48,484 nucleotides of DNA from a virus (lineage: Duplodnaviria > Heunggongvirae > Uroviricota > Caudoviricetes): the IMG/VR virus record IMGVR_UViG_2737471860_000008, positions 1 to 48,484 of that record; one strand, given 5' to 3'. The notes beneath the pieces were generated by a model, which saw only the letters and a list, made by a program, of their open reading frames with translations, was not told the DNA's origin and made no database searches. Shown piece by piece: positions 8,626-47,476 of this stretch (position 1 is its first letter; the number at the start of each line of letters is the position of its first letter). A program made the translations under genes and the position numbers.

Positions 8626-8760
8626 AAGAAGACTTCCAATAATCAGAACAAGTCGGCTCCTGTTTAGTTACGAGCGACATTGCTCCGTGTATTCACTCGT
8701 TGGAATGAATACACAGTGCAGTGTTTATTCTGTTGTTTGTGCCAAAAATAAAGGCCACTA

Positions 8761-8961
8761 TCAGGCAGCCTTGTTATTCTGTTTACCAAGTTCTCTGGCA
8801 ATCATTGCCGTTGTTCGTATTGCCCATTTATCGACATATTTCCCATTCTCCATTACAGGAAACATTTCTTCAGGCTTAACCATGCATTCCGATTGCAGCT
8901 TGCATCCATTGCATCGCTTGAATTGTCCACACCATTGATTTTTATCAATAGTCGTAGTCAT
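8761..8961 (-). CDS. Small Cys-rich (zinc-ribbon-like) protein, 66 aa
   Basis: C-x5-C-x2-C-x5-C cluster (CGQFKRCNGCKLQSEC); just downstream of N. Confidence 0.45.
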   Translation of the reverse strand: MTTTIDKNQWCGQFKRCNGCKLQSECMVKPEEMFPVMENGKYVDKWAIRTTAMIARELGKQNNKAA

Positions 8962-9039
8962 ACGGATAGTCCTGGTATTGTTCCATCACATCCTGCGGAT
9001 GCTCTTCGAACTCTTCAAATTCTTCTTCCATATATCACC

Positions 9040-9339
9040 TCAAATAAGTGGTTTGCTGCCTAATTTCATTTTCTGGCGACCAACACAAGTCACGCCCATT
9101 TCACTGCGTGGCTTGCGGTAGTAAATACGATTCTGTTTACGCTCGACTTCTTCTGCCTTCTTGCAGCGAAGGCTTCCGAGTGATGCTGCTTTATCTGCTC
9201 TGACGCAACCAGAGAGCTTTAGCGCAATTTTTCGCGCCAGTCGCTGTTCTTGCATTGCCTGCTCACGTTGAGCCTGTCTGCGTGCTCTGCGGCGATTTCT
9301 GGCGTTATCGTCAGCCAGATATGTAATGACTACTGTCAT
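9040..9339 (-). CDS. N: Antitermination protein N-like, ~99 aa (start moved to MTVVITY)
   Basis: GGAGG SD before ATG 9339; arginine-rich motif NARNRRRARRQAQ; C-terminus KQNRIYYRKP...GVTCVGRQKMKLGSKPLI resembles lambda N C-terminus. Confidence 0.75.
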   Translation of the reverse strand: MTVVITYLADDNARNRRRARRQAQREQAMQEQRLARKIALKLSGCVRADKAASLGSLRCKKAEEVERKQNRIYYRKPRSEMGVTCVGRQKMKLGSKPLI

Positions 9340-9379
9340 GTTGACCTCCGGGAAGGTACACATCCTTGTGTGTCGATGA

Positions 9380-9499
9380 TTATTTGTTTTTGCGTTCCCA
9401 CATCCAGTCATCTACTTCAGACCAGATAGTGAAACCGAAGCAGATGGCGAATGTGGTAACTAAACCACCGAGAATTGGGTTGGTCATGATGTCTAACAT
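9380..9499 (-). CDS. Small hydrophobic peptide, 39 aa (hand-called), between nutL and N
   Basis: GAGGAA SD then ATG; MLDIMTNPILGGLVTTFAICFGFTIWSEVDDWMWERKNK has one predicted TM helix. Confidence 0.35.
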   Translation of the reverse strand: MLDIMTNPILGGLVTTFAICFGFTIWSEVDDWMWERKNK

Positions 9500-9670
9500 T
9501 TTCTGTTCCTCAGATGATTAGCTTTGGTGGTGTGGTAGGTGGGAGACCCATTTCGACCCGCTTCGTCCGACTTCAATTCGGCAATAGTCCCGCAGGCCTC
9601 GCCGCTTTACGTGCGACATATTCCCGTCCATGAACCCTTCACCACACCCCAAAGCCAACTACTCTTTGGT

Positions 9671-9711
9671 TCCCGCATTTCGGCGGGACAATCCCATCAA
9701 TGTTAAAGAGC
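9671..9711 (-). promoter_or_regulatory. nutL-like site (boxA GCTCTTTAACA plus boxB hairpin)
   Basis: On the minus strand GCTCTTTAACA precedes hairpin CCCGC-CGAAAT-GCGGG by 12 nt; near-identical copy downstream of cro. Confidence 0.6.
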
Positions 9712-9850
9712 CTGCCAATCTGTTCCGTTTGGCTACCAGCGTCCTGCTGATGGCTTAAATTTAAGATCTCTTTAATTAATGGTCAAGAGTATTTTTGAAG
9801 AAAACTTAAATTTTCTTTCGTAACTTAAGTTTGGCTTTGATTTTTAAAGG

Positions 9851-9876
9851 AAATAAAAAAAGGGGCGAATGCCCCC
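9851..9876 (-). terminator. Rho-independent terminator immediately after cI
   Basis: Hairpin GGGGC-GAAT-GCCCC directly after the cI stop, followed on the minus strand by a T-run. Confidence 0.6.
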
Positions 9877-10527
9877 TTATGGAAGGTTTGCTAGTTTTGC
9901 ATCGACAACTACGCCGATGATTTTGCAGTTTCCGTTGATCTCGATCATCGGATATTGTGGGTTAAGTGGTTTTAGAAACTTCCTGCCTGCATCAATAACT
10001 AACTTCTTGAAAGTTGCCTCGTTTTCTCCTTCGAGCTTTGCAACTACCAGTTTCCCGTTACGCGGCTCTACTTCAGGATCGACGAGTATTATCATTCCTT
10101 CAGGGATACTGAGACCGGCCGGAGCCGTCATTGAGTCTCCCTTCACGTCCAACCAAAACGAATCTTCTGAACAGTCTACGGTTGTATCGTACCAGTTATC
10201 TATTGCACGCTTATGATATGGTTCTACAGCTTCCATCCAGCATCCTGCGCTCACCCAGCTAATCAGAGGGTATGACCCTCTTGGATCATGCCTACTGTGA
10301 TAGGCAATGTTTGAAAGACTTTCCTCTCCTTTCATCAGATAGTCAGGGGAACACTTCAACGCATTAGCCAGGGCGAGAAGATTCTCTCCATTTGGCTCTG
10401 TCTCAGAGCGTTCCCACTGAGATATGGCAACATTAGACACGCCGACCATCTTTCCAAGTGCGGCCTGCCTGATCTTGAGTTCTTTTCTCCGAGCGCGAAT
10501 GCGCTCTCCCATCAATTGAGTTTTCAT
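9877..10527 (-). CDS. cI: CI repressor (P22 C2/434-type, HTH plus S24 LexA-like autopeptidase), 216 aa
   Basis: N-terminal HTH (QAALGKMVGVSNVAISQWERSE), C-terminal S24 domain with GDSM serine and conserved Lys; divergent from cro. Confidence 0.9.
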   Translation of the reverse strand: MKTQLMGERIRARRKELKIRQAALGKMVGVSNVAISQWERSETEPNGENLLALANALKCSPDYLMKGEESLSNIAYHSRHDPRGSYPLISWVSAGCWMEAVEPYHKRAIDNWYDTTVDCSEDSFWLDVKGDSMTAPAGLSIPEGMIILVDPEVEPRNGKLVVAKLEGENEATFKKLVIDAGRKFLKPLNPQYPMIEINGNCKIIGVVVDAKLANLP

Positions 10528-10607
10528 AGTTAAGACATCTTAAATAAACTTGACTTAAGATTCCTTTAGTGGATAATTTAAGTGTTCTTTAATTTCGGAG
10601 CGAGTCT
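10528..10607. promoter_or_regulatory. OR operator/pRM-pR region with P22-type 18-bp operators
   Basis: ATTTAAGTGTTCTTTAAT at 10576-10593 and AGTTAAGACATCTTAAAT at 10528-10545 fit P22-type operators; -35 TTGACT (10550-10555) and -10 GATAAT (10572-10577) for rightward promoter. Confidence 0.6.
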
Positions 10608-10793
10608 ATGTACAAGAAAGATGTTATCGACCACTTCGGAACCCAGCGTGCTGTAGCTAAAGCGTTAGGCATTAGCGACGCAGCAGTCTCTCAGTGGAAG
10701 GAAGTCATCCCAGAGAAAGACGCCTATCGACTGGAAGTCGTTACAGCTGGCGCCCTGAAGTATCAAGAAAGCGCTTACCGCAAAGCGGCATAA
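10608..10793 (+). CDS. cro: Cro-like repressor, 61 aa
   Basis: Small HTH protein (QRAVAKALGISDAAVSQW) divergent from cI, GGAG SD. Confidence 0.8.
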   Translation: MYKKDVIDHFGTQRAVAKALGISDAAVSQWKEVIPEKDAYRLEVVTAGALKYQESAYRKAA

Positions 10794-10799
10794 GCAAAT

Positions 10800-10845
10800 T
10801 GCTCTTTAACAGTCATGGTCCTCATTCCCGCCGAAATGCGGGAAT
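10800..10845 (+). promoter_or_regulatory. nutR-like site (boxA TGCTCTTTAACA plus boxB hairpin)
   Basis: boxA 10800-10811, hairpin ATTCCCGC-CGAAAT-GCGGGAAT 10824-10845; same boxB sequence as at nutL. Confidence 0.6.
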
Positions 10846-10901
10846 ACAACGCGCATAAGTTGATGCGCATAACTTCTTATTTGTTAAGGAAATACTTACA
10901 T

Positions 10902-11195
10902 ATGGTTCGTGCAAACAAACGCAACGAGGCTCTAAGAATCGAGAGTGCGTTGCTTAACAAAATCGCAATGCTTGGAACTGAGAAGACAGCGGAAGCTGTG
11001 GGAGTTGATAAGTCGCAGATCAGCAGGTGGAAGAGGGACTGGATTCCAAAGTTCTCAATGCTGCTTGCTGTTCTTGAATGGGGCGTCGTTGACGACGACA
11101 TGGCTCGATTGGCACGACAAGTTGCTTCGATTCTCACCAATAAAAAACGCCCGGCTGCAACCGAGCGTTATGAACAAATGCAGATGGAATTCTGA
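10902..11195 (+). CDS. cII: CII transcriptional activator, 97 aa (start moved to MVRANK)
   Basis: Near-identical to lambda CII as I recall it ([51 protein letters not shown]...); the upstream extension in the ORF track contains nutR. Confidence 0.9.
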
Positions 11196-11227
11196 GGTCA
11201 TTACTGGATCAATCCACAGGAGGAATT

Positions 11228-11374
11228 ATGACAAAACAACTCAGTCCTTACCAGGACAAAATTCACAAACACATACTACGTGATCGCTTCCTGTCCAGCT
11301 TCAAGCAGCCTGGTCGATTCCGGGCTGAGTTGGAAAAAGTGAAGCTGATGCAGAAGGAGAAAGGTCATGAGTAA
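11228..11374 (+). CDS. Small hypothetical protein, 48 aa (hand-called)
   Basis: AGGAGG SD then ATG 11228; stop overlaps start of the O-like gene (ATGA). Confidence 0.4.
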
Positions 11375-12266
11375 CATATCTAATCTAGCCGAAGCCAGAG
11401 AGGCCAGAAGGCTACAACAACCGCATCAAAGCAGCGGTAAGGGGTATGCCTTGCTGCACCGTAAAATTATGGATGTGCCGTTTTACAAGGACGCAGAAGC
11501 TGCGCATCTGTGGGTTCACTTAATCCTCAAAGCAAAGTATACGCCTGAGTATGTAATGACTGACGCAGGAGAAATTCTGGTAGGCAGAGGGAAGCTACTT
11601 GGCGGTAGAAACTCTCTGGCGTTTGAAACAGGACTCAAACCAGATCGCGTTCAGTACCTGCTTAGAAAGTTCAAAAAACTCGGCATGATTGACTGGGTTT
11701 CACACGGTAAATTCTCAGTTTTCTCGGTAGAGAAATATGACGATTATCAGTCAAATTTTGTACCAGCAGATTACCAGCAAATTACCACCTCAAAGCCAGC
11801 AATACCAATGCCTGCAAGCAATACTGTACCAGCAGATTACCAGCAAATTACCACAGGTAAAGAATATAATAATATTATCTCTAATACTGACGTATTAGAG
11901 AGTGCCACAGCAGACAAAAAGTCTGACAAGAAAAAACCTTCCGTCAGCTGTCAGGATGTTGTCGATGCTTACCACGAAATCCTTCCTGAAGCGCAAAAAA
12001 TCCGCGCACTGAATGACAAGCGTAAAAACCAGATCCGAACGTTCTGGCGCAAAGCCGGAGTGATAACCCGCCAGCTTGACGGGCATGGGTTCACGATGCA
12101 GGACTGGAGAAATTATTTGATCTACGTAGGCGAAAATTGCCGATGGATGTTCGAAGAACGCCCAAACCATCAACGCGGAACCGTCTGGCACAAAAAGGGA
12201 TTTGATTTCCTGCTTAACGACAATACCTACCTGAAAGTTCGTGAGGGTGAACACGATGACCGATAA
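11367..12266 (+). CDS. Replication initiation protein (O-like, iteron-binding), 299 aa
   Basis: Position after cII; ori-type iterons lie inside the gene and encode the duplicated peptide [10 protein letters not shown]. Confidence 0.7.
11759..11854 (+). repeat. Replication origin iterons: two perfect 30-bp direct repeats plus AT-rich tract
   Basis: TGTACCAGCAGATTACCAGCAAATTACCAC at 11759-11788 and 11825-11854, followed by AT-rich sequence at about 11855-11895. Confidence 0.65.
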
Positions 12267-13692
12267 TTTTTATGCGCCGCCCCATAGCATCGAGGCAGAG
12301 CAGGCGGTGATTGGTGGATTGCTTCTGGATGATGACAGCAGTGAGCGCGTCCGGAAAGTTCTGGCGATGCTGAAGCCTGATTCATTTTACAGCCGACCAC
12401 ACAAAATTCTTTTCGAAGAAATAACCAGAATGCACCGGGAGCAAAAGCCAGTAGATGGCCTGACGCTTTTCGATGAACTGGAGCGCAAATCGTTAACGGT
12501 GTCTGTTGGCGGTTTTGCTTATATCGCTGAGATCGCAAAGAACACGCCAAGCGCAGCAAACATCGTTGCCTATGCAATGCAGGTTCGTGAAACCGCAATG
12601 GAACGCTACGCCATCAACCGCATGACTGAAGCGACGGAATTGCTCTATTCCCGCAACGGAATGACTGCAACGCAGAAGTACGAAGCTATTCAGGCGATTT
12701 TCACGCAACTGACAGACCATGCAAAAACCGGATCGCGTCGCGGCCTTCGCTCATTTGGTGAGATCATGGAAGACTGGGTTAGCGACCTTGAGAAGCGATT
12801 TGATCCGTCAGGCGAACAGCGAGGAATGAGCACAGGGATCCCATCGCTGGACAGGATGCTGTCACCGAAAGGTCTGGTGAAAGGCTCTCTGTTTGTCATT
12901 GGCGCTCGCCCTAAGATGGGGAAAACGACGCTATACAGCCAGATGGCAATCAACTGCGCAGTGCATGAGAAAAAGCCCGCTCTGATGTTCAGCCTTGAAA
13001 TGCCAGGTGACCAGATACTGGAAAAACTGGTAGGGCAGAAGTCTGGTGTTAACCCGAATATTTTTTACCTTCCGGCGACAAATGACGCTGATGACGGCTA
13101 TCAGGGTGATTACGATGGTGACTTCAACAGGGCGATCGAAACAGCCAATCGCTTGAGTGAAATCGACATGCTTTACATCGACGACACGCCGGGATTATCT
13201 CTGGCTCAAATCGTCAGCGAAAGCCGTCGAATCAAGCGAGAAAAAGGATGTGTTGGCATGATTCTGGTCGATTACCTGACACTAATGACCGCTGAAAAGG
13301 CCGATCGCAACGACCTTGCTTACGGCATGATCACCAAAGGACTGAAGAACCTTGCCAAAGAGCTTGATTGCGTTGTTGTGCTTCTGACACAGCTTAACCG
13401 CGCACTGGAAAGCCGAACCAATAAACGCCCATTACCAAGTGACTCACGAGATACAGGGCAGATTGAACAGGATTGCGATTATTGGGTGGGGATCCATCGT
13501 GAAGGTGCTTTTGATGACAGTGTTCCACCTGGTGAAACCGAACTAATCCTTCGTCTCAATCGTCATGGCAATACCGGCACGGTGTATTGCATTCAGGCAA
13601 ATGGCGCTATTTATGACACAGACCAACAGTCTGCTGAAATGCGCCGCCGTGAACGCGAGGAGCCGCAGTCCAAGAAGAAAGGAGGATTCTGA
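12256..13692 (+). CDS. Replicative DNA helicase (DnaB family), ~478 aa
   Basis: Walker A GARPKMGKTT, DnaB N-terminal domain (IEAEQAVIGGLLLD), RecA-like core; start moved to ATG 12256 (GAGGGTGA SD). Confidence 0.85.
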   Translation: MTDNFYAPPHSIEAEQAVIGGLLLDDDSSERVRKVLAMLKPDSFYSRPHKILFEEITRMHREQKPVDGLTLFDELERKSLTVSVGGFAYIAEIAKNTPSAANIVAYAMQVRETAMERYAINRMTEATELLYSRNGMTATQKYEAIQAIFTQLTDHAKTGSRRGLRSFGEIMEDWVSDLEKRFDPSGEQRGMSTGIPSLDRMLSPKGLVKGSLFVIGARPKMGKTTLYSQMAINCAVHEKKPALMFSLEMPGDQILEKLVGQKSGVNPNIFYLPATNDADDGYQGDYDGDFNRAIETANRLSEIDMLYIDDTPGLSLAQIVSESRRIKREKGCVGMILVDYLTLMTAEKADRNDLAYGMITKGLKNLAKELDCVVVLLTQLNRALESRTNKRPLPSDSRDTGQIEQDCDYWVGIHREGAFDDSVPPGETELILRLNRHGNTGTVYCIQANGAIYDTDQQSAEMRRREREEPQSKKKGGF

Positions 13693-18879: not shown

Positions 18880-18954
18880 GGGTCAGTCGTATAAAGGTCA
18901 TTACGGAAGGCTGTTAACCTTCTTATCGTGGTTCGAGTCCACGCTGTCCCGCCA
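18880..18954 (+). tRNA. tRNA-like gene, anticodon GUU (Asn), with imperfect acceptor and D stems
   Basis: Hand-folded cloverleaf: anticodon loop CTGTTAA, T arm CGTGG-TTCGAGT-CCACG, encoded CCA; one mismatch each in acceptor and D stems. Confidence 0.45.
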
Positions 18955-18959
18955 AACAT

Positions 18960-19035
18960 GCTGTTTTAGCTCCAATGGTAGAGCGGTCGCCTTGTAAGCG
19001 AATGGGTAGCGGTTCAAGTCCGTTAAACAGCACCA
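18960..19035 (+). tRNA. tRNA-Thr (anticodon UGU), 76 nt with encoded CCA
   Basis: Hand-folded: 7-bp acceptor stem GCTGTTT/AAACAGC, D stem GCTC/GAGC, anticodon loop CTTGTAA, T loop TTCAAGT. Confidence 0.7.
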
Positions 19036-37893: not shown

Positions 37894-38222
37894 GAACCTA
37901 TGGCCGAAACTCTGAGGGGAAGTGGGTCCTGGTGGAAACCGACGAAAATGGGTTTAATGACTCGGTGTATTTGACCACTCTGATCCAGAATCTGAAACTG
38001 GCACCGCAGGAGTCGCCCTTTTATGCGAACAACGGAATACCGGCCGCCGGTTCAGTGATCCAGCAAATCCTGCCAACGTATTACGTAAACCGTATTCAAA
38101 AACAGTTCAGCCAGTATTTTTCCTCGCTGCAGATTGCACTGATCAGCGACGACCCGCCTGTTTATAACATCTCGGCAATCACAAACGCAGGTTCAAAAAT
38201 AATTACACAGGTGGCCGTATGA
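37890..38222 (+). CDS. Small baseplate protein (gpW-like by position), 110 aa
   Basis: Position. Confidence 0.4.
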   Translation: MRTYGRNSEGKWVLVETDENGFNDSVYLTTLIQNLKLAPQESPFYANNGIPAAGSVIQQILPTYYVNRIQKQFSQYFSSLQIALISDDPPVYNISAITNAGSKIITQVAV

Positions 38223-39637
38223 GCGATTTACCAGTCAGCTATACGTCAGCAGGACCGGTTCCTCTGACGCCGGAAGAGCTAAGAGCACAGCTCGTTTCCC
38301 AGGCCATTGCGCTATCTCCGGGGCTCACAACTGATTTGCCTGGCTCTCTGATTGAGGACGTGGCCAGTACCGATGTCGGCGCGCTCATCGTTTGTGATCA
38401 AGCAAGGGTTGACCTGATTAACTCAGTGGGGCCGCTAAAGGCTAACCTCGCCATGCTAGAGCTTCTCGCGCAGCAGGCTGGTATCCCCGGGCAAAAAACG
38501 GCTGGCACGACAACGGTTCCGATTCAGTTTTCCGGCCCGGCGGGATTTGTTATCCCACAGGGGTTTATTGTTTCTGATGGGACCTATACCTATTCAGTCA
38601 GTGATGCGACGATTATCTCATCGTCTGGAGTATCTGCCAGCGTATCATGCGAGGGAACGGAGACCGGGACCTGGGCGGTTCCGGTAAATACGGTTAACCA
38701 GATCATATCCAGTCTACCGTCTGACGTCACCATCACCTGCACCAACCCGATCGCCGGCACTCCGGGTGCTGACCCGGAAACGAACTATCAGTTTCGTGAT
38801 CGCGTATGGCAGGCGCAGATGGCCACCGTTCAGGGATATCCTGGATTTATCCGGCAATATCTCACCAGCCTTGATAACGTGCAGGCGCGCCTGGTTTCTG
38901 TCATTCAGGACGGGGATAAGTGGATAGTTATGTGTGCCGGCGGTGATATTTACGATATTGCTGGCGCGCTCTATAAGTCTGCAGGGGATATCAGTCGGCT
39001 GAAAGGGTGTTCACTGAACGTAACGGGGATCACGAATGCAAATCCTGGTGTCGTCAGCACAGACCTGACTCATGGTTACACTGACGGCCAGGTTATCCGG
39101 ATCACTGGCGTTACCGGGATGACGGGTATTAATGACGTTCCTCTGACCGTGACGGTACTGTCTCCTCACACGTTTTCCATCGGGATTGACACCACGTCAT
39201 CCGGGACCTGGGGAGGCGGCGGCGAGGTGACACCGAACGTCAGAAACAATACCGTGACGGTGAATGACTGGCCTGATAACTACGTGATCCCGTTCGTGAC
39301 GCCATTGCTGCAGCGGGTCACTGTGACGTATCAGTGGGGGACAGAAAGTGTTAACTACCTGACAGATGCCACGGTCGCCTCTCTGGTCTCGGCGCCTACG
39401 ATTCAGTATGTGAACGGCATATTCGCCGGGAAACCGCTGAACGTTAACAACCTGAAAGACGCATTCTTACAGGCGATTAACTCGACAATCGACATGGGGC
39501 TGATCAGTACTCTAAACGTCGTGGTCACCATCAATGGTGTGATAACGCCACCGGATGCCGGGACGAATATCATCAGCGGCGATAAGTTCAGTTATTTTTA
39601 TATCGCGTCGGATGGCGTGATCGTAACAGGGGCGTAG
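38219..39637 (+). CDS. Baseplate wedge protein (gpJ-like), 472 aa, with inserted HG.T.GQ...TF domain
   Basis: Size and position; overlapping start/stop with neighbours. Confidence 0.5.
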   Translation: MSDLPVSYTSAGPVPLTPEELRAQLVSQAIALSPGLTTDLPGSLIEDVASTDVGALIVCDQARVDLINSVGPLKANLAMLELLAQQAGIPGQKTAGTTTVPIQFSGPAGFVIPQGFIVSDGTYTYSVSDATIISSSGVSASVSCEGTETGTWAVPVNTVNQIISSLPSDVTITCTNPIAGTPGADPETNYQFRDRVWQAQMATVQGYPGFIRQYLTSLDNVQARLVSVIQDGDKWIVMCAGGDIYDIAGALYKSAGDISRLKGCSLNVTGITNANPGVVSTDLTHGYTDGQVIRITGVTGMTGINDVPLTVTVLSPHTFSIGIDTTSSGTWGGGGEVTPNVRNNTVTVNDWPDNYVIPFVTPLLQRVTVTYQWGTESVNYLTDATVASLVSAPTIQYVNGIFAGKPLNVNNLKDAFLQAINSTIDMGLISTLNVVVTINGVITPPDAGTNIISGDKFSYFYIASDGVIVTGA

Positions 39638-40386: not shown

Positions 40387-41079
40387 ATGGTAAAGATTAA
40401 AATGAAAACTTCAATTATGCTTGCTTTTTTATCAGTTTCGTTGTGCGCAGGAAGTTCTTTTGCAGCTTCTTTTGATTGTAATAAATCAAAAAATTTTGCA
40501 GAAAAAACAATTTGTTCTGACAAGAAATTATCAGAAGATGATGAGGTTCTTGCTAAGGTTTATAATCTTGCAAAGAAAGTTGCGCATAATAAAAATGGGT
40601 TCGATAGGCTGACAAAAGATTTATGGGACTCAAGGGATTTGTGCACCGACTACAAATGCATTAATGATTGGTATGATACTGTATTTGTTGCGTATGATTC
40701 TGTTATAAAAACAAATGCAAGCGATGAGGTTTTGAATAATATTCAGAAAAAATATGATGAGTCAATAACGCAGAAGCCAGCAATAAGCAACGGAGCTAAA
40801 AACAAAAAAGAAGCTAAAGATTATAGTTTATACGATTCAAAAGACAGAGCCGCGCCAGTTGAACATAACGCAATATTATACAAAGACACTCCAGAGGCAT
40901 TCGAATTTATAGATACACTTGTTGGGTTTGTCAGACAAAGCTCTTACAAATGTGACTCTGTTAGCTCTTTCATACCCATGGTTTCATCTAATGGATTTAC
41001 GCTCGCATGTAATAAATTCAGCTACAAATATGAAATTAAAAACAACGGCGGAAATGTCTCTGTTTCTGTAGATAATTAA
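40387..41079 (+). CDS. AT-rich moron: secreted DUF1311 (LprI-like lysozyme-inhibitor fold) protein, 230 aa
   Basis: Signal peptide MKTSIMLAFLSVSLCAGSSFA; DUF1311-type motif FDCNKSKNFAEKTICSD..L...D..L...Y; AT-rich versus neighbours; own terminator. Confidence 0.6.
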   Translation: MVKIKMKTSIMLAFLSVSLCAGSSFAASFDCNKSKNFAEKTICSDKKLSEDDEVLAKVYNLAKKVAHNKNGFDRLTKDLWDSRDLCTDYKCINDWYDTVFVAYDSVIKTNASDEVLNNIQKKYDESITQKPAISNGAKNKKEAKDYSLYDSKDRAAPVEHNAILYKDTPEAFEFIDTLVGFVRQSSYKCDSVSSFIPMVSSNGFTLACNKFSYKYEIKNNGGNVSVSVDN

Positions 41080-41130
41080 CTCAAAGCCCACGCCAGTGGG
41101 ATTTCATAAATAACACATTGATAACATCAA

Positions 41131-41153
41131 ACCCGCTTCGGCGGGTTTTTTTA
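41131..41153 (+). terminator. Rho-independent terminator after the moron
   Basis: Hairpin CCCGC-TTCG-GCGGG followed by TTTTTTT. Confidence 0.75.
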
Positions 41154-41174: not shown

Positions 41175-44087
41175 ATGGCACTAACCCTTTTGGCTACAAA
41201 CAACGCAGAAAGCACGCTGGCTTCTGCTATCAGCGCTACCGACACGTCGCTGATCGTTAGCGCTGGAACTGGTGCCGAGTTCCCTGATGCTGTGGCAGGC
41301 GAAAGCTACTTTAAGCTTACGATCACCGATGCCGCCACCGGCTCTCAGGTTGAGATCGTGAACGTGACAGCCAAGGCTGGTGACATCTTCACGATTGAAC
41401 GTGCGCAGGAAGGAACGCTGGCTCATGCGTGGGCGGCCAACGATATGGTTGCCAACATGATGACGGCGGATACGCTGAACATTATCGCTCAATATGCCCA
41501 GCAGGCAGCTGCATCAGCAGCACAGGCTGAAGAGTATGCAAATAACGCTTCTGACTATGCACAGAATAAGTTCACGTTCTATAAAACCTCAAGCGATCCA
41601 GATGGCACCATTGCAGGTCTGGCAGCGACTACTGACGGCCAGTCTTTCTGGGTAGCCCAGGGTCCGGATGCGCTTTCTGCTGCATGGCAGTATCAAAACA
41701 AAGCAGGCGTGGCCGTATTGCAGGCAAAGCAACCAGGCACAGCGGCTATAACAGGGACAATCCGCGAATTTCCGACGTTGGCTGCGGCGCAGGCTGATGC
41801 AGATGCCGGCAACATTCCTGTCGGGTCAACTGCGTATTACCGCAGCGCTGACGACGCAACTCTTGCGATTGAGGTTGTTAACACCGCAGGAACGCTGCAG
41901 CCTACCGGACGAAAAATGCCATCCGCAATGCCAATGGGTTACCAGTCTGCTACAGCTGTGAGTAGCGGTGCGGCTAATACCATTGCTATCACTATCCCCG
42001 GATTATTAGTGGATGGCAGTTTGATTTATTTCCTGTCTCCTATTTTGAATACGGCGGCTGTTAGCGTTACCGTGACAGATGCCAGGGGGAACTCGGTTAC
42101 TCGGGCAATACAGAAACAAAATAATGCAGCTTTAGTTGGGAATGAGTTGCTTCTCAATCAGCCCGCACTGATGGAATTCCGCACTGGGACTGCTAACAAT
42201 TTTGTCCTTGTGGCATCCGGCCCGGTAGCCGCTGAACTTGCGTCAAGAATTTCCACGCTTGAATTAAATAGCGTAGCGTTATTGTCTGGCGTTGCTAATT
42301 CTGGAGATGCCTATTCCGGCACCGCATCTACAATCCCTGGACTTGTTGCATCTGATCGCGTCTTTCTTTTTACGCCAAGCGCCACCAATACAACCCGTAC
42401 ACCAACTCTTTCCGTTAATGGTGGAACGGCAAGGCAGATTAAGCAAAATAACGGGACCAGCGTCGCTGCTGGAGATTTTGTAGCGGGATACACGTATTTA
42501 ATCAAATTTAATTTTTCATCAGCAGATTTTCGGATGCTGACCTACCCGGCTGACAGAAGTCGCGTACTTAATGGTTATTCAAAGGCAACTGTTACCAGCG
42601 ATGCTACCAGTCCTAACTCGGTAGCATTAACAATTCCCGGGTTACTTGGCGATGGAACTCAGCTTACTTTTGAGCCGGTTGTTGCAAATACCGGTGCTAT
42701 GACTTTGGTCATCACCGATATGTACGGTAACACAGTCACGCGTAACTTATTCAAAGGGGCTAATACTGCGCTAACTGGTGGAGAGCTGCGGGCGGCAATG
42801 CCAGCCACTGTGCAATACCGTGGCTCTCCGCAGAATAACTTTAAGCTGTTGTATGCCGGTGATCCAACCACGGATATACAGTCCCTCTCAAAAGACGTTA
42901 CGACCCTCAAGGGGGCGCTGACAGACCCGTATGCAGCACTGGCCGATAAACTTGTGGGCACCGGAGTGTCAACAGATCAGTCACCGTTCGGTACCATCAC
43001 CTGGTCCGCGGGAGTTAAGACCGTCACAAAGCGCCAGATAATTTGTACGTCTATCGGGTCTTCTGTGGGCGTTGGGGCGGGCTCTACTGGCGGCGGCGTT
43101 GCCGGTGCTCCTTATGCTCCGAACACGCTGTTTGTCAATGCCTTAAAAGAAGAGCTTAAGCAGTATGGTCAGTTCGATATTATTGATGATAACCAGTGCA
43201 TACCGACCCAGGCATTCCAGCAGTTCGCTGCCCAGCTCGCGAATTCGCCTTATTCAACCTCCGACTTTGTTTTGATCGTGGGGGGGATGAATGATGCACC
43301 AGTTGGTAACTACAATATGGGGCGCACATATCCGGGTCAGCAAACGACGCTTGAGGCTCTTGTCGACCTGTGCCTGGCACGTGGCGCTATTCCCATCATC
43401 TGTACGACTCCGCACCATAACGTAGAAATGCCTCAAACTTACCCGACAATACCAGGAGGGCAGCCTTTATTGTGGCCTTATCGCACATATAACGTAGGAC
43501 CGACAACAACTTATGCATTTGACTCTTCTTCAAAGACGATAACGCAAGGGGCGTTCGCAAACCCACTGTATGGGGGTAATATTCTCAAGCCAGGACACAC
43601 ACTGCATGTAGCAAGTGGCGCGAATGCTGGAGATTATACAATTGCGTCTATTTCATCTGACCGAACAGTAATAACAGTTGTAGAACCGATACCATCTACT
43701 ACTTCCTATGCCACCACCATCACGCAAACCAACCTGAACAGCATTATTGAGGACATACTGGAGCCGCCCCCATCCACATCTTTTGTCACAAAGGACTGGA
43801 GCGGAAGCGGCGTGAAAGTTTTGGGCGATGTGAGATTCGAGTCAGTAAACATGATGCAACGTACAGTGGCTCGCCAAAAAAATGCATTTTTGGCCGACTG
43901 TGAAAAGTCGTTCTTTAAATACGGCGTGGAGGTGGGCGGGTACTCGTCGGTATATAACGTCCCGGTTGGGAACTATAACCACATGAACGATAACGGGTAC
44001 ACAGTCACATTCGACTACACACTGAAAGTTGCGGCAAGAAAAATAGCCAATCTTATTTTTGGCGATAAATATTACTCTGCAGCATAA
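41175..44087 (+). CDS. Tail fibre/tailspike, ~970 aa, with SGNH/GDSL-like esterase domain (start moved to MALTLLATNN)
   Basis: GGAGGAG SD before ATG 41175; conserved fibre N-terminal domain; central region with GSS...GGMNDA...PHH blocks resembling SGNH hydrolases. Confidence 0.7.
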   Translation: MALTLLATNNAESTLASAISATDTSLIVSAGTGAEFPDAVAGESYFKLTITDAATGSQVEIVNVTAKAGDIFTIERAQEGTLAHAWAANDMVANMMTADTLNIIAQYAQQAAASAAQAEEYANNASDYAQNKFTFYKTSSDPDGTIAGLAATTDGQSFWVAQGPDALSAAWQYQNKAGVAVLQAKQPGTAAITGTIREFPTLAAAQADADAGNIPVGSTAYYRSADDATLAIEVVNTAGTLQPTGRKMPSAMPMGYQSATAVSSGAANTIAITIPGLLVDGSLIYFLSPILNTAAVSVTVTDARGNSVTRAIQKQNNAALVGNELLLNQPALMEFRTGTANNFVLVASGPVAAELASRISTLELNSVALLSGVANSGDAYSGTASTIPGLVASDRVFLFTPSATNTTRTPTLSVNGGTARQIKQNNGTSVAAGDFVAGYTYLIKFNFSSADFRMLTYPADRSRVLNGYSKATVTSDATSPNSVALTIPGLLGDGTQLTFEPVVANTGAMTLVITDMYGNTVTRNLFKGANTALTGGELRAAMPATVQYRGSPQNNFKLLYAGDPTTDIQSLSKDVTTLKGALTDPYAALADKLVGTGVSTDQSPFGTITWSAGVKTVTKRQIICTSIGSSVGVGAGSTGGGVAGAPYAPNTLFVNALKEELKQYGQFDIIDDNQCIPTQAFQQFAAQLANSPYSTSDFVLIVGGMNDAPVGNYNMGRTYPGQQTTLEALVDLCLARGAIPIICTTPHHNVEMPQTYPTIPGGQPLLWPYRTYNVGPTTTYAFDSSSKTITQGAFANPLYGGNILKPGHTLHVASGANAGDYTIASISSDRTVITVVEPIPSTTSYATTITQTNLNSIIEDILEPPPSTSFVTKDWSGSGVKVLGDVRFESVNMMQRTVARQKNAFLADCEKSFFKYGVEVGGYSSVYNVPVGNYNHMNDNGYTVTFDYTLKVAARKIANLIFGDKYYSAA

Positions 44088-44096
44088 GGAATTATC

Positions 44097-44384
44097 ATGG
44101 CCTTTAAACTATCAGCAGTAAAAACTGTCCAGATTTATTATCTCGGAGGATTTCTGTGTGATAAGGATATCAATATTGACCTTATTTACTCAGTAGAAAG
44201 CGTCAGGCAGGATGATGCAGGTCAAGTTAAAGCCTCAGTCTCCGTTAGATATAATGATGCGGCGAAAGTTAACGCAGGAGAGTATGCGGTAACTCTGGAC
44301 GCATCGTCATCGAAGCCGTGGGCAGAACAGGCTGAACAGCAACTCATGCAAGCTGAAGAGTTTGCTGGGGCTGTTGTCCTGTAA
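44097..44384 (+). CDS. Hypothetical protein downstream of the fibre gene, 95 aa
   Basis: ORF with SD (AAGGAA); function unknown. Confidence 0.4.
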   Translation: MAFKLSAVKTVQIYYLGGFLCDKDINIDLIYSVESVRQDDAGQVKASVSVRYNDAAKVNAGEYAVTLDASSSKPWAEQAEQQLMQAEEFAGAVVL

Positions 44385-44414
44385 GCACAAAAAACCTACG
44401 CAGACTGAACGAGG

Positions 44415-44457
44415 TTGACCTTCCCTCTCAATAAAACTACTGTATATAAAAACAGTG
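44415..44457 (+). promoter_or_regulatory. SOS-type promoter: -35 TTGACC, 17-bp spacer, -10 TACTGT overlapping a LexA box TACTGTATATAAAAACAGTG
   Basis: CTGT-N8-ACAG palindrome at 44440-44455 fits the LexA box consensus TACTG(TA)5CAGTA. Confidence 0.65.
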
Positions 44458-44475
44458 TTTATCGGAGGGCAGATC

Positions 44476-44715
44476 ATGCTTCGACAGTCAGACATCGCCG
44501 CGGCTTTCCGCGAGTCGGTTTTGCGCAGCTCTAAGGGGTTCCAGTACCTTCACACCCGCGACTTTGTTAGCGCGCTGCGCCAGCATGGCATCCACTTTTC
44601 CGAGGTGGAAGCTAACGCCTGGATAGCGCGCGAGCAAACGTATTTCGTCGATAAGACGCCTGACCATAGCGAAAACAGGCTGTGGATGATGGCCAACATG
44701 GGGAGGGTTTTGTAA
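44476..44715 (+). CDS. Hypothetical small protein, first gene of LexA-box operon, ~80 aa
   Basis: GGAGGG SD 6 nt before ATG 44476; stop overlaps next start (TAATG). Confidence 0.55.
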   Translation: MLRQSDIAAAFRESVLRSSKGFQYLHTRDFVSALRQHGIHFSEVEANAWIAREQTYFVDKTPDHSENRLWMMANMGRVL

Positions 44716-45032
44716 TGGGCTTTCCATCACCGGCAACGGACTATACCGAACAGCGGCTGACCGTTAACTCGATCTGTAATGTCGGGCCAAATACTCGCCT
44801 TTACGAAAGGGATGGTGGTTATGTTGTGCTGGATATCTCCCTGAAGCCAAAGCAGGGAAGCCAGCTGCTTATCCATCACGGTGGCGGGACGGAACTTGCC
44901 ACGCTGAGAGGAAAGTCACTGATAACCGATGATGGCGAAGCGATCGAGGGGGATGCTCTGGACGATGTCACTGTCATTGGTGTCGTGACATTTACTATCT
45001 GCGATGTTCGTTCTGATAATTCTATTATTTAA
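44715..45032 (+). CDS. UmuD-prime-like protein (S24-like fold, catalytic Ser apparently absent), ~105 aa
   Basis: Starts MGFPSPATDYTEQR, matching the post-cleavage N-terminus of UmuD (GFPSPAADYVEQR); C-terminal VIGVV block conserved; no GDSM serine motif. Confidence 0.6.
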   Translation: MGFPSPATDYTEQRLTVNSICNVGPNTRLYERDGGYVVLDISLKPKQGSQLLIHHGGGTELATLRGKSLITDDGEAIEGDALDDVTVIGVVTFTICDVRSDNSII

Positions 45033-45043
45033 CTGGGGTATAT

Positions 45044-46075
45044 ATGGCGCTGAAGCTATTAGCCAATAATAACGCAAAGAGTGTGCTCGCTGCGGGTATT
45101 AGCGCGTCCGCTACCGTTATTACCGTGGGTACTGGAGCGGGGTCTTTATTCCCTTCCCCTGTATCTGGGCAGAGCTATTTCAAATTAACGATAACCGACG
45201 CGGCCACGAAAACAATTTCCGAAATTATGCACGTCACGTCTGTATCTGGTGACGTGATGACAGTAATTCGTGGTCAGGAAGGAACTACGGCACGCGTATG
45301 GTCAACGAATGACATTGTCGCGAATTTAATGACCGCCGGGTCATTATTATCTTTCCTGCAGATCAGTAATAACCTGTCAGAAATTAAAGATGCTGGTGAT
45401 GATGCGGTAAATGAAGCCCGTTATAACCTCGGAATATCTGATTCCTCTGGTTTTGTCGGTCGTTCACTTGGCGCTCCAAAAGTTTTCTATGCAAACGGAA
45501 CCTATACGCGATCTCCTCTGGCCCGTTATGCAAAAGTAACGTTGACAGGTGCCGGTGGCGGCGGTGGCGGCTGCCAGGCCTACAACAATACAGAAACCTT
45601 CTCCGGTGCTGGCGGCGGCGCGGGCGCGACCATTATCGTATGGGTTGACCTGTCTGCTGCCAGTTCTTATGCGATTACTGTCGGCAAGGGTGGTAAGGGC
45701 GGAGTTGGCGCAGTAAGTGGTGCAGATGGTGGGGCCACCTCGTTTGCCAGCCTGTTCTCAGCTCCTGGCGGGAAAGGCGGCGTGAAGTCAGGCGTGTCCA
45801 ATACCGCCGGCGGCGCCGGAGGTACGGCGGCGACCGGAGATATCAGGATCAACGGTGGTACCGGCTCAGATGGACAGACAGGCTCAAGCCTTCTGACGGG
45901 CAACGGCGGGGCGTCGTATTTTGGCGGCGGTGGCCGGGCGGGTTCTCAGGCCGGTATTGCTGGCGCAGCTCCCGGATCCGGTGGTGGTGGCGCGTATGAC
46001 CTTGGGTTTACCGGTGCGGCATTTACCGGTGGTGATGGTGCTACTGGCATGGCGATCGTGGAAGAATTCGCGTAA
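45044..46075 (+). CDS. Second tail-fibre protein with Gly-rich C-terminal domain, 343 aa
   Basis: N-terminal ~105 aa paralogous to the N-terminus of the 41175 fibre (…YFKLTITDAAT…QEGT…); C-terminal GGGGxG-rich repeats. Confidence 0.65.
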   Translation: MALKLLANNNAKSVLAAGISASATVITVGTGAGSLFPSPVSGQSYFKLTITDAATKTISEIMHVTSVSGDVMTVIRGQEGTTARVWSTNDIVANLMTAGSLLSFLQISNNLSEIKDAGDDAVNEARYNLGISDSSGFVGRSLGAPKVFYANGTYTRSPLARYAKVTLTGAGGGGGGCQAYNNTETFSGAGGGAGATIIVWVDLSAASSYAITVGKGGKGGVGAVSGADGGATSFASLFSAPGGKGGVKSGVSNTAGGAGGTAATGDIRINGGTGSDGQTGSSLLTGNGGASYFGGGGRAGSQAGIAGAAPGSGGGGAYDLGFTGAAFTGGDGATGMAIVEEFA

Positions 46076-46079
46076 TGGC

Positions 46080-47240
46080 TTACACTCCTGCACGACCATC
46101 GATGTAATCAGCCCACCACTGCATCATTTCTCTGCGCTTATCGAGATACTGAGCATGGTTGTAAATTCCGCGCACAGATCCGCCGTTGGCATGTGCAAGT
46201 TGCACTTCAATAGCATCAGCAGGCCATTCGTGCTCGTTCATAATCGTGCTGAATTCATGCCTGAATCCGTGACCGCTTTCCAGACCCTCATAGCCGATTT
46301 GTTTGATCACAAGCAATACCGCGTTCTCGCAGATTGGCTTCTTCTTATCGTTGCGTCCGGCAAAAACAAACTCTGATACTGGTTTAGTGATGGAGCTTAG
46401 CGTAGTGAGAAGTTCAACCACCTGGTCCGACATCGGGACCACATGAATCTTGCGTCCCTTCATCACGCTGGCGTCGATGGTGATAATCCTGTTTTCAAAA
46501 TCGACGTTCTTCCATAGCATGGAACGAAGCTCTTTCGTTCTTAGGGCTGTGTAGCGTAAAACTTTGGTCGCAATGAGCGATACGATACTTCCTGAAAATG
46601 TTGCCAGTGCTTTGTTGAATGCCGGGATCTGGTCTGCAGGAAGAAACGGGAAGTTCTTCTTGCGGTATCCTTTCATGGCGTCAGCAAGGTCAGGTGCCGG
46701 GTTATATTTAGCCCTGCCGGTGACAATAGCGTAACGGAAAACCTCGCCGCATCTTCTGCGGGCTTTGTTGGCTCGCTCCATTGCACCGCGATCTTCAAAT
46801 CTGCGGATTACTTCCAGTAGTTGCATCGGCTCAATATCCTGAATTTCAAGGCCGCCGATGATAGGTAAAATGTCGTCATCAAACATTTTTGCAAGTTCAT
46901 TTGCATAGCCTACTGACCAGACTTGCTTCTTGTGCTCGTACCATTCCTTGTAAATCGCACTAAATGAATTGTTGTTAGACGAAGCCTTTTTCGCCTTTAC
47001 CGGATCGATGCCAACCGAGATGTCTTTCCTCGAAGTCCATGCCTTATCCCTTGCCTCCTGCAAAGTCATTAGCGGATATTTTCCTACGGTTAGGACTTTC
47101 TCCTTACCGTCAATCTTGTAGCGAAGCTGCCATACCTTTTTCCCGGATACAGGGACATAAAGGTACAGTCCATTACCATCGAGAAGGCGGTATGGTTTTT
47201 CTTTCGGCTTTGCTGCTTCAATCTGCTTAACGGTGAGCAT
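46080..47240 (-). CDS. intS: Tyrosine integrase (IntS/P4-type), ~386 aa (start at MLTVKQ; alternative GTG at 47276)
   Basis: C-terminal catalytic region with R...H..R...Y pattern (HGFRHEF...RGIYNHAQY); adjacent to tRNA; matches my recollection of K-12 IntS. Confidence 0.85.
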   Translation of the reverse strand: MLTVKQIEAAKPKEKPYRLLDGNGLYLYVPVSGKKVWQLRYKIDGKEKVLTVGKYPLMTLQEARDKAWTSRKDISVGIDPVKAKKASSNNNSFSAIYKEWYEHKKQVWSVGYANELAKMFDDDILPIIGGLEIQDIEPMQLLEVIRRFEDRGAMERANKARRRCGEVFRYAIVTGRAKYNPAPDLADAMKGYRKKNFPFLPADQIPAFNKALATFSGSIVSLIATKVLRYTALRTKELRSMLWKNVDFENRIITIDASVMKGRKIHVVPMSDQVVELLTTLSSITKPVSEFVFAGRNDKKKPICENAVLLVIKQIGYEGLESGHGFRHEFSTIMNEHEWPADAIEVQLAHANGGSVRGIYNHAQYLDKRREMMQWWADYIDGRAGV

Positions 47241-47284
47241 GGGTAAAAATCCGGTGGGTAAAATTATTTTATCCACTTTTTACC
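47241..47284. promoter_or_regulatory. Cluster of GGGTAAAA/TTTTACCC repeats upstream of int (putative arm-type sites)
   Basis: GGGTAAAA at 47241-47248 and 47256-47263, TTTTACCC at 47277-47284; same 8-mer twice near attR. Confidence 0.4.
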
Positions 47285-47401: not shown

Positions 47402-47416
47402 TGGTGTCCCCTGCAG
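47402..47416. repeat. attL core (copy of the 15-bp att repeat, part of argW 3' end)
   Basis: Exact match to 1690-1704. Confidence 0.8.
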
Positions 47417-47476
47417 GAATCGAACCTGCAATTAGCCCTTAGGAGGGGCTCGTTATATCCATTTAACTAAGAGGAC
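47402..47476 (-). tRNA. argW: tRNA-Arg (anticodon CCU), 75 nt
   Basis: Minus-strand sequence GTCCTCTTAGTTAAATGGATATAACGAGCCCCTCCTAAGGGCTAATTGCAGGTTCGATTCCTGCAGGGGACACCA folds as cloverleaf with anticodon CCT. Confidence 0.9.

Follow-up and report, generated by a model that had tools for sequence, protein, structure and literature searches.

A predicted SGNH-type esterase domain at the tip of a prophage tail fibre in Escherichia coli

The SGNH domain is the most prevalent enzymatic domain among the receptor-binding proteins of Klebsiella prophages (PMC13123978). Two fibres of this kind from Klebsiella pneumoniae prophages, 164_08-KL2 and 174_38-KL55, are esterases on pNPA (Otwinowska et al., PLoS Biol 2026, PMC13123978), and the Klebsiella SGNH fibres are statistically associated with K-loci (PMC13123978). 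The tail protein gp63.1 of phage G7C provides a precedent for deacetylation of a polysaccharide without cleavage of its chain. We analysed a tail-fibre gene in a stretch of viral DNA of 48,484 nucleotides (IMG/VR record IMGVR_UViG_2737471860_000008; hereafter the window, to which all positions refer). Our results indicate that the gene probably encodes the fibre of an E. coli prophage at argW, with an SGNH serine-esterase tip that deacetylates capsule or O-antigen.

The fibre gene, its neighbours and its N-terminal parts

The gene and its surroundings comprise the following features.

41129..41148, + strand: terminator-like GC hairpin with a T-run, 27 nt 5' of the fibre ATG
41175..44087, + strand: tail-fibre gene, 970 aa, stop codon included (open-reading-frame list and translation)
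41175..41528, + strand: N-terminal anchor domain, aa 1-118 (PDB 8jov, PHROG and likeness to the second fibre)
41943..42869, + strand: shaft repeats, aa 257-565, three weakly similar repeats of ~95 aa (MAFFT alignment of segments)
44097..44384, + strand: 95-aa open reading frame directly 3' of the fibre gene, accompanying the fibre module
45044..46075, + strand: second fibre, 343 aa, sharing the N-terminal anchor of the first and ending in a glycine-rich domain

The fibre reading frame is intact between its ATG (41175) and its stop codon (44087) and has GGAGGAG as its ribosome-binding site. The identical protein was likewise predicted on a Logan contig of 49.8 kb. A TTG at 41118 was considered as the start and rejected; the ATG is favoured because the extended reading frame would include the terminator hairpin, which forms the end of the preceding low-GC gene, and because the extension is without homology. 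Since this strong terminator lies just 5' of the fibre gene, expression of the fibre requires read-through or a promoter of its own. A Baseplate_J gene is located at 38219-39637 and a phrog_8212 gene just upstream of the fibre gene, so that the fibre stands at the end of the tail/baseplate module, and an integrase gene and a tRNA-Arg att site are located downstream. The yfdC/argW flank is 99.9% identical, which marks E. coli as the host; the prophage is integrated at argW. The 95-aa reading frame gave no match in Pfam, PHROG or NCBIfam and is 93% conserved beside the fibre in L001 and L002. The second fibre matched Pfam Gly_rich_2 (E 1.6e-13) as well as PHROG tail-fibre families.

The preliminary description had called a tail fibre of ~970 aa at 41175-44087, and this assignment holds, given the intact 970-aa frame and an N-terminus that parallels both the second fibre and PDB 8jov. 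Residues 8-118 matched 8jov, a 'putative tail fiber protein', with an E value of 1.3e-9, and the N-termini of the two fibres are 57% identical over the first 101 aa. The protein also matched the PHROG tail-fibre families 38670, 8469, 4201 and 30299, with 8469 and 30299 covering the N-terminal anchor. These matches and the site after the baseplate genes support the prediction that the gene product is a receptor-binding tail fibre, which would be located on the virion and act in adsorption. The anchor of ~118 aa would dock the fibre onto the tail or baseplate; it is followed by a shaft (aa ~119-600) and a distal SGNH tip (aa ~615-965). The call of shaft repeats is tentative because their similarity is too weak to give BLASTP self-hits. 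When the shaft, the inserted beta-domain described below or the N-terminal part was searched separately against Pfam, nothing significant was found.

The SGNH domain and its inserted beta-domain

The esterase-like blocks had been placed in the central part of the fibre. They are in fact located in its C-terminal third (aa ~615-965), which is confidently predicted, from the model described below, to be an SGNH-type domain made up as follows.

43017..43490, + strand: N-terminal half of the SGNH core, aa 615-772, beta1 to beta4 with blocks I-III
43404..43415, + strand: subfamily-specific motif T744-T-P-H747, after beta4 (strand 739-743) and not block V
43491..43733, + strand: inserted small beta-domain, aa 773-853 (~80 aa), within the SGNH core
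43734..44069, + strand: C-terminal half of the SGNH core, aa 854-965, with beta5, block V and the C-terminal helix

The SGNH-like resemblance noticed earlier goes beyond chance, as judged from Pfam, from profile matches to solved enzymes and from the predicted fold. Pfam PF13472 (Lipase_GDSL_2) matched the fibre with an E value of 2e-6 and a score of 28.8 bits, which is below the gathering cut-off of 32.9 bits. Only profile positions 2-110 of 178 were matched because the insertion splits the domain. A PF13472 assignment is precomputed for most homologues, and the E. coli relatives are labelled 'SGNH/GDSL hydrolase family protein' in RefSeq. The family profile matched many solved SGNH enzymes, including LAE5, YxiM, TesA and 9lna. 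The C-terminal half of the core corresponds to the second hmmsearch stretch in the relatives and aligns with 5jd3 around block V. A phmmer search of the PDB with the single domain sequence gave nothing meaningful, NCBIfam models did not match the fibre, and a literature search for the PDB entries 9D80 and 9LNA turned up no relevant paper.

Structure prediction, the check named in the preliminary description, yielded an SGNH fold and so did not refute that description. The AF2 model of aa 601-970, calculated with a diverse alignment of 26 sequences, had a pLDDT of 92.3 and a pTM of 0.87. The quality of the model depends on this alignment, since a run with a shallow alignment of 10 close homologues was unusable (pLDDT 49). 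As in the SGNH/GDSL superfamily, the model has three alpha/beta/alpha layers and a sheet of five parallel strands, and every top PDB match in Foldseek was an SGNH protein. Blocks I, II and III are placed after beta1, beta2 and beta3, respectively, and block V is placed before the C-terminal helix, which is the order of the superfamily.

The motifs that had been read from the translation are all present: GSS occupies residues 628-630, GGMNDA residues 703-708 and PHH residues 746-748. PHH had been taken to lie near the domain end, but it follows beta4, roughly half-way through the domain. It was rejected as block V and as the site of the catalytic His because of this position, because H748 is unconserved and because the invariant His of the relatives lies in the second half of the core. 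H747 is kept in 119 of the 130 relatives and position 748 is Pro in 88 of the 130; block V (N933-Y-N-H936) lies ~190 aa beyond PHH, with the inserted beta-domain in between. H747 probably lines the substrate pocket. The inserted domain is all-beta with high pLDDT in both AF2 models and is absent from 83 of the 119 complete relatives, in which the core halves abut. It is possibly a carbohydrate-binding or positioning module. A comparison with the E1_FCCH-like domain found in the baseplate J protein encoded nearby revealed no similarity.

Predicted catalytic residues and proposed function

The catalytic blocks were assigned as follows.

43056..43064, + strand: block I, G628-S629-S630, predicted nucleophile S630, located by the model at the end of beta1
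43206..43208, + strand: block II position, T678, which is Gly in the family and superfamily (backbone NH of the oxyanion hole)
43284..43295, + strand: block III, G704-M-N706-D707, with N706 as the predicted oxyanion-hole Asn
43971..43982, + strand: block V, N933-Y-N-H936, predicted general base H936, just before the last helix

In hhalign against TesA, GSS fell on GDS, T678 on G44 and N706 on N73 of GGND; the family motif HPNllGH was aligned with HPNLAGH of LAE5 (5jd3) in block V. The presence of GSS instead of GDS had been regarded as a ground for doubting activity. This doubt does not stand, since GSS is the consensus of the subfamily (G in 124/124 relatives, S629 in 106/124, S630 in 123/124) and not a decayed GDS. 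In block III, the Asn is present in 128 of 129 relatives and the Asp in 112, and H936 is kept in 128 of 129.

The real deviations are Thr678 in block II and Asn933 in block V, both of which have precedents in active SGNH enzymes. Position 678 is Gly in 114 of 127 relatives and Thr in 8, and the fibre, with Thr, is without the block II Gly of the superfamily; the contribution at block II comes from the backbone, and SpOatA, which also lacks the Gly, has Ser there (PMC9487903). N933 occupies the usual site of the triad Asp or Glu (DxxH), three residues before H936, and catalysis could be weakened by an Asn in place of the acid. This position is Glu in 63, Asn in 26, Gln in 25 and Asp in 9 relatives (E/Q/N/D in 123/130). 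Dyad-type SGNH enzymes can be active, and active members without the block V acid include CE2 members, EcNanS and SsEst (PMC9487903). Since SpOatA is a transferase, its block II Ser may also be cited for an SGNH-fold acyltransferase that, like PatB, OatA or AlgX, would add acyl groups rather than remove them. We regard this as extremely improbable for an extracellular virion protein without an activated acetyl donor, and both of the tested Klebsiella prophage fibres hydrolyse pNPA (PMC13123978).

All three of S630, N706 and H936 are conserved in 120 of the 121 complete relatives, with each relative representing one cluster at 50% identity; a profile-seeded homologue search contributed only 4 further proteins. 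The three residues are likewise intact in the 10 nearest homologues (52-96% identity). Among homologues of the SGNH part, the closest come from Klebsiella, with up to 96% identity. The lone exception, P0020, has lost all three residues at once, which shows that the scaffold can persist without them. Together with the two substitutions in the fibre, Thr678 for Gly in block II and Asn933 for the acid, and with its Pfam score under the cut-off, P0020 could point to a dead or very weak pseudo-esterase, a lectin-like module that only binds acetylated polysaccharide. We consider this rather unlikely, since a binding-only module would not be expected to retain the three residues in nearly all clusters and in every close homologue at a divergence of ~45%. 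Moreover, the family member that lost catalysis lost the three residues together, and substitutions of the T678 and N933 types are known in active SGNH enzymes (PMC9487903).

From the gene, the domain order, the fold, the motif positions and the conservation, we infer catalysis by a serine esterase and a substrate in the outer polysaccharide. S630 would attack an O-acetyl ester of capsule or O-antigen polysaccharide at its carbonyl, and H936 would act as the general base, with the N933 side-chain oxygen orienting it in place of a carboxylate. The backbone NH groups of S630 and residue 678, together with the N706 side chain, would hold the oxyanion, and the ~80-aa beta-domain and H747 probably shape substrate binding. 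Deacetylation without chain cleavage would allow the fibre to engage and process the polysaccharide layer, so that the virion reaches the cell surface. An active esterase could have another substrate, such as O-acetylated peptidoglycan, enterobacterial common antigen, colanic acid or an acyl chain of LPS or lipoprotein, because the fold alone leaves the substrate unfixed and non-capsular receptors have been raised for prophage SGNH proteins (PMC12115436). This appears quite unlikely, since the distal tip of a long fibre first meets the outermost polysaccharide, the characterised phage cases named in the literature examined either target O-antigen (G7C gp63.1) or have been reported as structural polysaccharide deacetylases (Aristophanes, Possum), and the K-locus association of the Klebsiella fibres points the same way (PMC13123978). 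The acetylated capsule or O-antigen types open to a temperate phage depend on esterase-tipped fibres, which are an alternative to depolymerases. The assignment of S630, N706 and H936, together with the subfamily features N933, T678 and H747, guides the choice of mutants.

Comparison with known SGNH proteins

The fibre shares the alpha/beta/alpha fold, the block order and the Ser, Asn and His positions with bacterial SGNH/GDSL esterases (1yzf, 3rjt, Axe2, TesA). It differs from the generic enzymes in its block I motif (GSS, where they have GDS), in Thr at the Gly position of block II, in an Asn replacing the block V Asp, in the inserted beta-domain, in its fusion to a fibre of 600 aa and in a Pfam score below the gathering threshold.

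In BFVD, the best viral structural matches were F8R4T7 of Escherichia phage K30 and A0A2I7RXG8 of Vibrio phage 1.249.B (E 1e-17 to 1e-19, TMq 0.61-0.62, ~20% identity). The alignments span ~350-370 columns, which is nearly the whole query of 370 residues. Both proteins are shorter (475-517 aa) and uncharacterised, and the kinship is seen from structure prediction alone. Tail spikes of Pectobacterium phages Possum and PP99 appeared lower in the list.

It is conceivable, although doubtful, that the fibre belongs to a separate SGNH subfamily carried by phages (~127 clusters at 50% identity) with GSS, GMND, TTPH and (E/Q/N)xxHPN, one branch of which has the inserted beta-domain and Asn or Gln for the triad acid. 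Such a Ser-His-Asn carbohydrate esterase would fall outside the Pfam gathering threshold and the searched NCBIfam models, and it would form a cassette with the glycine-rich second fibre that moves between E. coli and Klebsiella phage backbones. If this is true, the movement would imply an acetylated polysaccharide receptor common to E. coli and Klebsiella. The occurrence of the same fibre module in E. coli and Klebsiella prophages hints at cross-genus host-range modules, which would be relevant to phage engineering and to the reading of prophage-borne receptor specificity.

When four fibre peptides were searched in the supplements of PMC13123978, no matches were found and thus no link to the tested esterases. 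Like the Klebsiella prophage SGNH fibres, the present fibre belongs to a temperate phage, carries its SGNH domain at the C-terminus and lacks a beta-helix depolymerase. It differs in its E. coli host, and the present subfamily is set apart by GSS, TTPH, NxNH instead of DxxH and the insertion of ~80 aa. Since SGNH tail fibres as a general phenomenon have already been published (PMC13123978), the present case is mainly one more, slightly atypical, example.

G7C gp63.1 (PDB 4qnl), an O-antigen O-acetyl esterase of an E. coli phage, is only 10% identical in sequence to the fibre. G7C is a virulent N4-like podovirus, whereas the present fibre comes from a prophage, and the two proteins differ in N-terminal attachment and domain order. 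The SGNH domain of gp63.1 is not at the extreme C-terminus. The predicted SGNH domain of the fibre is structurally equivalent to gp63.1.

Fibre gene and its prophage setting

The SGNH fibre occupies a single long plus-strand frame that ends at 44087. ATG 41175 was taken as the start because the N-terminus (MALTLLATNNA...) parallels those of the second fibre and PDB 8jov from residue 8 onward, which gives the ~970-aa protein described previously (ORF list). A longer, TTG-initiated version was rejected, as it would take in a terminator-like hairpin. The fibre and its neighbours are as follows.

38219-39637, plus strand: Baseplate_J protein; one segment matches the FCCH beta-barrel domain of ubiquitin E1 (Pfam PF16190, E = 4e-14)
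40387-41079, plus strand: low-GC gene (GC 0.40), 230 aa, between the baseplate genes and the SGNH fibre
41129-41148: strong terminator-like hairpin upstream of the SGNH fibre, 27 nt before its start codon
41175-44087, plus strand: SGNH fibre, 970 aa; GGAGGAG precedes the ATG
41943-42869, plus strand: three weakly similar shaft repeats of ~95 aa (fibre aa 257-565)
44455-44715, plus strand: small phrog_3893 protein, between the two fibre genes
44682-45032, plus strand: UmuD-like protein (phrog_3469, E = 1e-45), between the two fibre genes
45044-46075, plus strand: second fibre, 343 aa, with a glycine-rich C-terminus (Pfam Gly_rich_2)
46080-47276, minus strand: integrase, adjoining tRNA-Arg(CCT)
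47402-47476: tRNA-Arg(CCT), the argW site, with yfdC beyond

Identity to E. coli genomes is 99.9% across the flank containing yfdC and tRNA-Arg(CCT), indicating that the element is a prophage of E. coli integrated at argW. The prophage itself contains two genes for tRNAs (Asn-GTT and Thr-TGT; 18880-19035, plus strand). Upstream of the SGNH fibre are the Baseplate_J gene and a phrog_8212 gene. The low-GC gene, which has the hairpin at its 3' side, looks like a moron; its product matches phrog_33858, a family without assigned function, and its N-terminus, MKTSIMLAFLSVSLCAGSSFA, appears signal-peptide-like by eye. The shaft repeats matched no Pfam family, and segments resembling them are also visible in distant relatives of the fibre, such as P0013, P0014, and P0016. 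The first 101 aa of the second fibre are 57% identical to the anchor domain of the SGNH fibre, and the phage may carry two receptor-binding proteins, alternative or co-mounted, on one docking site. The UmuD-like gene is in an odd location for a gene of the DNA-metabolism type.

Extent and predicted fold of the SGNH domain

Lipase_GDSL_2 of Pfam matched fibre aa 627-755 at E = 2e-6 and 28.8 bits, a sub-threshold (cut-off 32.9) and non-random match. Since it spans only profile positions 2-110 of 178, Pfam sees only the first half of the domain. No NCBIfam model matched the fibre and the Pfam gathering threshold was not reached, the sequence signal being too weak. When 1.84 billion cluster representatives were scanned in full by HMMER, with aa 601-970 as the query, 127 clusters passed E<=1e-3; local re-alignment showed complete domains in 119 of them. 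The two matched stretches (query aa ~615-772 and ~854-960) abut in 83 of the 119, forming a ~250-aa domain, whereas ~80-100 extra residues separate them in 36, including the SGNH fibre. Thus, the SGNH core is split by an insertion at aa ~773-853. The domain, previously assigned to the central part of the protein, is its distal third and reaches the fibre C-terminus.

AF2 gave a pLDDT of 49 when the alignment contained close homologues only, and a pLDDT of 92.3 with a pTM of 0.87 from 26 sequences spanning 24-69% identity. The order of the elements in the latter model is that of the SGNH topology.

aa 621-628: beta1, then block I (predicted nucleophile S630)
aa 668-673: beta2, then block II (T678 in place of the canonical Gly)
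aa 698-702: beta3, then block III (Asn)
aa 739-743: beta4, then TTPH
aa 779-852: all-beta insertion
aa 905-907: beta5
aa 939-967: long C-terminal helix, with block V (H936) directly ahead

Every top Foldseek match in the PDB was an SGNH/GDSL enzyme. In a viral structure library, the best matches, all SGNH proteins, came from Vibrio phage 1.249.B and Escherichia phage K30, and the tail spikes of Pectobacterium phages Possum and PP99 were also among the matches. Since the model topology and the best structure matches in both libraries are of the SGNH type, the objection that the fold might not be SGNH-like fails.

Predicted catalytic residues and likely activity

The three motifs named in the preliminary description, GSS (aa 628-630), GGMNDA (aa 703-708), and PHH (aa 746-748), are all present. 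Column counts among the relatives were as follows.

G628, block I: 124/124
S629, middle residue of block I: 106/124
S630, predicted nucleophile in block I: 123/124
N706, Asn of block III: 128/129
D707, block III: 112/129
H747, TTPH motif: 119/130
H748, second His of PHH: 18/130 (Pro in 88)
H936, His of block V: 128/129

These counts, together with two profile alignments, changed the reading of two motifs. GSS, regarded earlier as a doubtful stand-in for GDS, is the subfamily consensus, and its third residue, S630, is the predicted nucleophile. PHH, taken earlier for the His block near the domain end, is part of a subfamily-specific TTPH motif in the loop after beta4, and the predicted catalytic His is H936 within N933-Y-N-H936. 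A conserved P/M-N-x-x-G-(H/Y) directly follows H936, and the family profile placed HPNllGH on HPNLAGH, the block V of LAE5 (5jd3), an SGNH enzyme of solved structure, at E = 8e-6; the profile also matched YxiM, TesA, further GDSL enzymes, and two chains from tail fibres (9lna, 9d80). In hhalign, GSS fell on GDS (S10), T678 on G44, and N706 on N73 of TesA, which has supporting weight only (E = 0.0025, low probability).

The fibre departs from the canon at Thr678, where 114/127 relatives have the block II Gly, and at Asn933 in the acid position (E 63, N 26, Q 25, and D 9 in the family). NxNH tracks the insertion-bearing branch (18/36) and ExVH the insertion-free branch (56/85). The main rival reading, that the domain is a binding-only pseudo-enzyme, appears improbable. 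S630, N706, and H936 are invariant in the ten closest homologues (52-96% identity) and jointly kept in 120/121 complete relatives, the sole exception, P0020, having lost all three; such joint retention or loss is the pattern predicted by catalytic constraint. Many CE2 esterases, E. coli NanS, and SsEst are active without a block V acid, and SpOatA is active with Ser for the block II Gly, the oxyanion hole having two components (PMC9487903). Since the three residues are conserved and such active precedents exist, the domain is probably an active esterase. Fold, motifs, and conservation thus support the original proposal of a tail fibre with an SGNH/GDSL-like, predicted esterase domain.

In the 908-aa P0020, the nucleophile Ser, block III Asn, and block V His are replaced while the scaffold and insertion are retained. 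It is likely a non-catalytic derivative and would be a useful experimental contrast.

Relatives, module exchange and known SGNH-tipped proteins

Klebsiella is the source of the closest SGNH-domain proteins (96%, 87%, and 68% identity), although the prophage sits in E. coli argW. Of the complete E. coli genomes searched (5,426), only 1 contained a place covering at least 80% of the gene (80.7% nucleotide identity). Some portion of the gene was matched in 89 genomes; among the other matches listed, the matching part was the 5' ~630-750 nt. RefSeq names the E. coli relatives 'SGNH/GDSL hydrolase family protein'. A module comprising fibre aa 121-970, orf95 (a 95-aa ORF), orf86, the UmuD-like gene, and the second fibre recurs at two comparison loci.

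~41535-46075: module in the window
9022-13552: module at L001
5983-10513: module at L002

Protein-level conservation of the module is 87-98% both in phage record OZ035751.1 and in a prophage located beside bioA/ybhB in E. coli, whereas the baseplate genes and fibre N-terminus there are unrelated. The block from fibre aa 121-970 to the second fibre is an exchangeable, mobile receptor-binding cassette. At L001 (NZ_CP151050.1), an uninterrupted 943-aa ORF (8737-11568) is homologous to the whole fibre; the RefSeq annotation is confined to 8758-9411, labelled a partial pseudogene ('missing C-terminus'), and the gene seems to be under-called.

SGNH-tipped receptor-binding proteins are already established. 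Structural tail proteins that deacetylate polysaccharides are reportedly encoded by Acinetobacter phage Aristophanes and Pectobacterium phage Possum. G7C gp63.1 is cited as an O-antigen deacetylase in a 2026 study, in which SGNH was the most prevalent enzymatic domain among Klebsiella prophage fibres and two such SGNH fibres hydrolyzed pNPA (PMC13123978); a 2025 bioinformatic survey reached the same conclusion on prevalence (PMC12115436). The SGNH fibre adds one more such protein, marked by subfamily-specific features: GSS, TTPH, NxNH, Thr at block II, and the inserted beta-domain.
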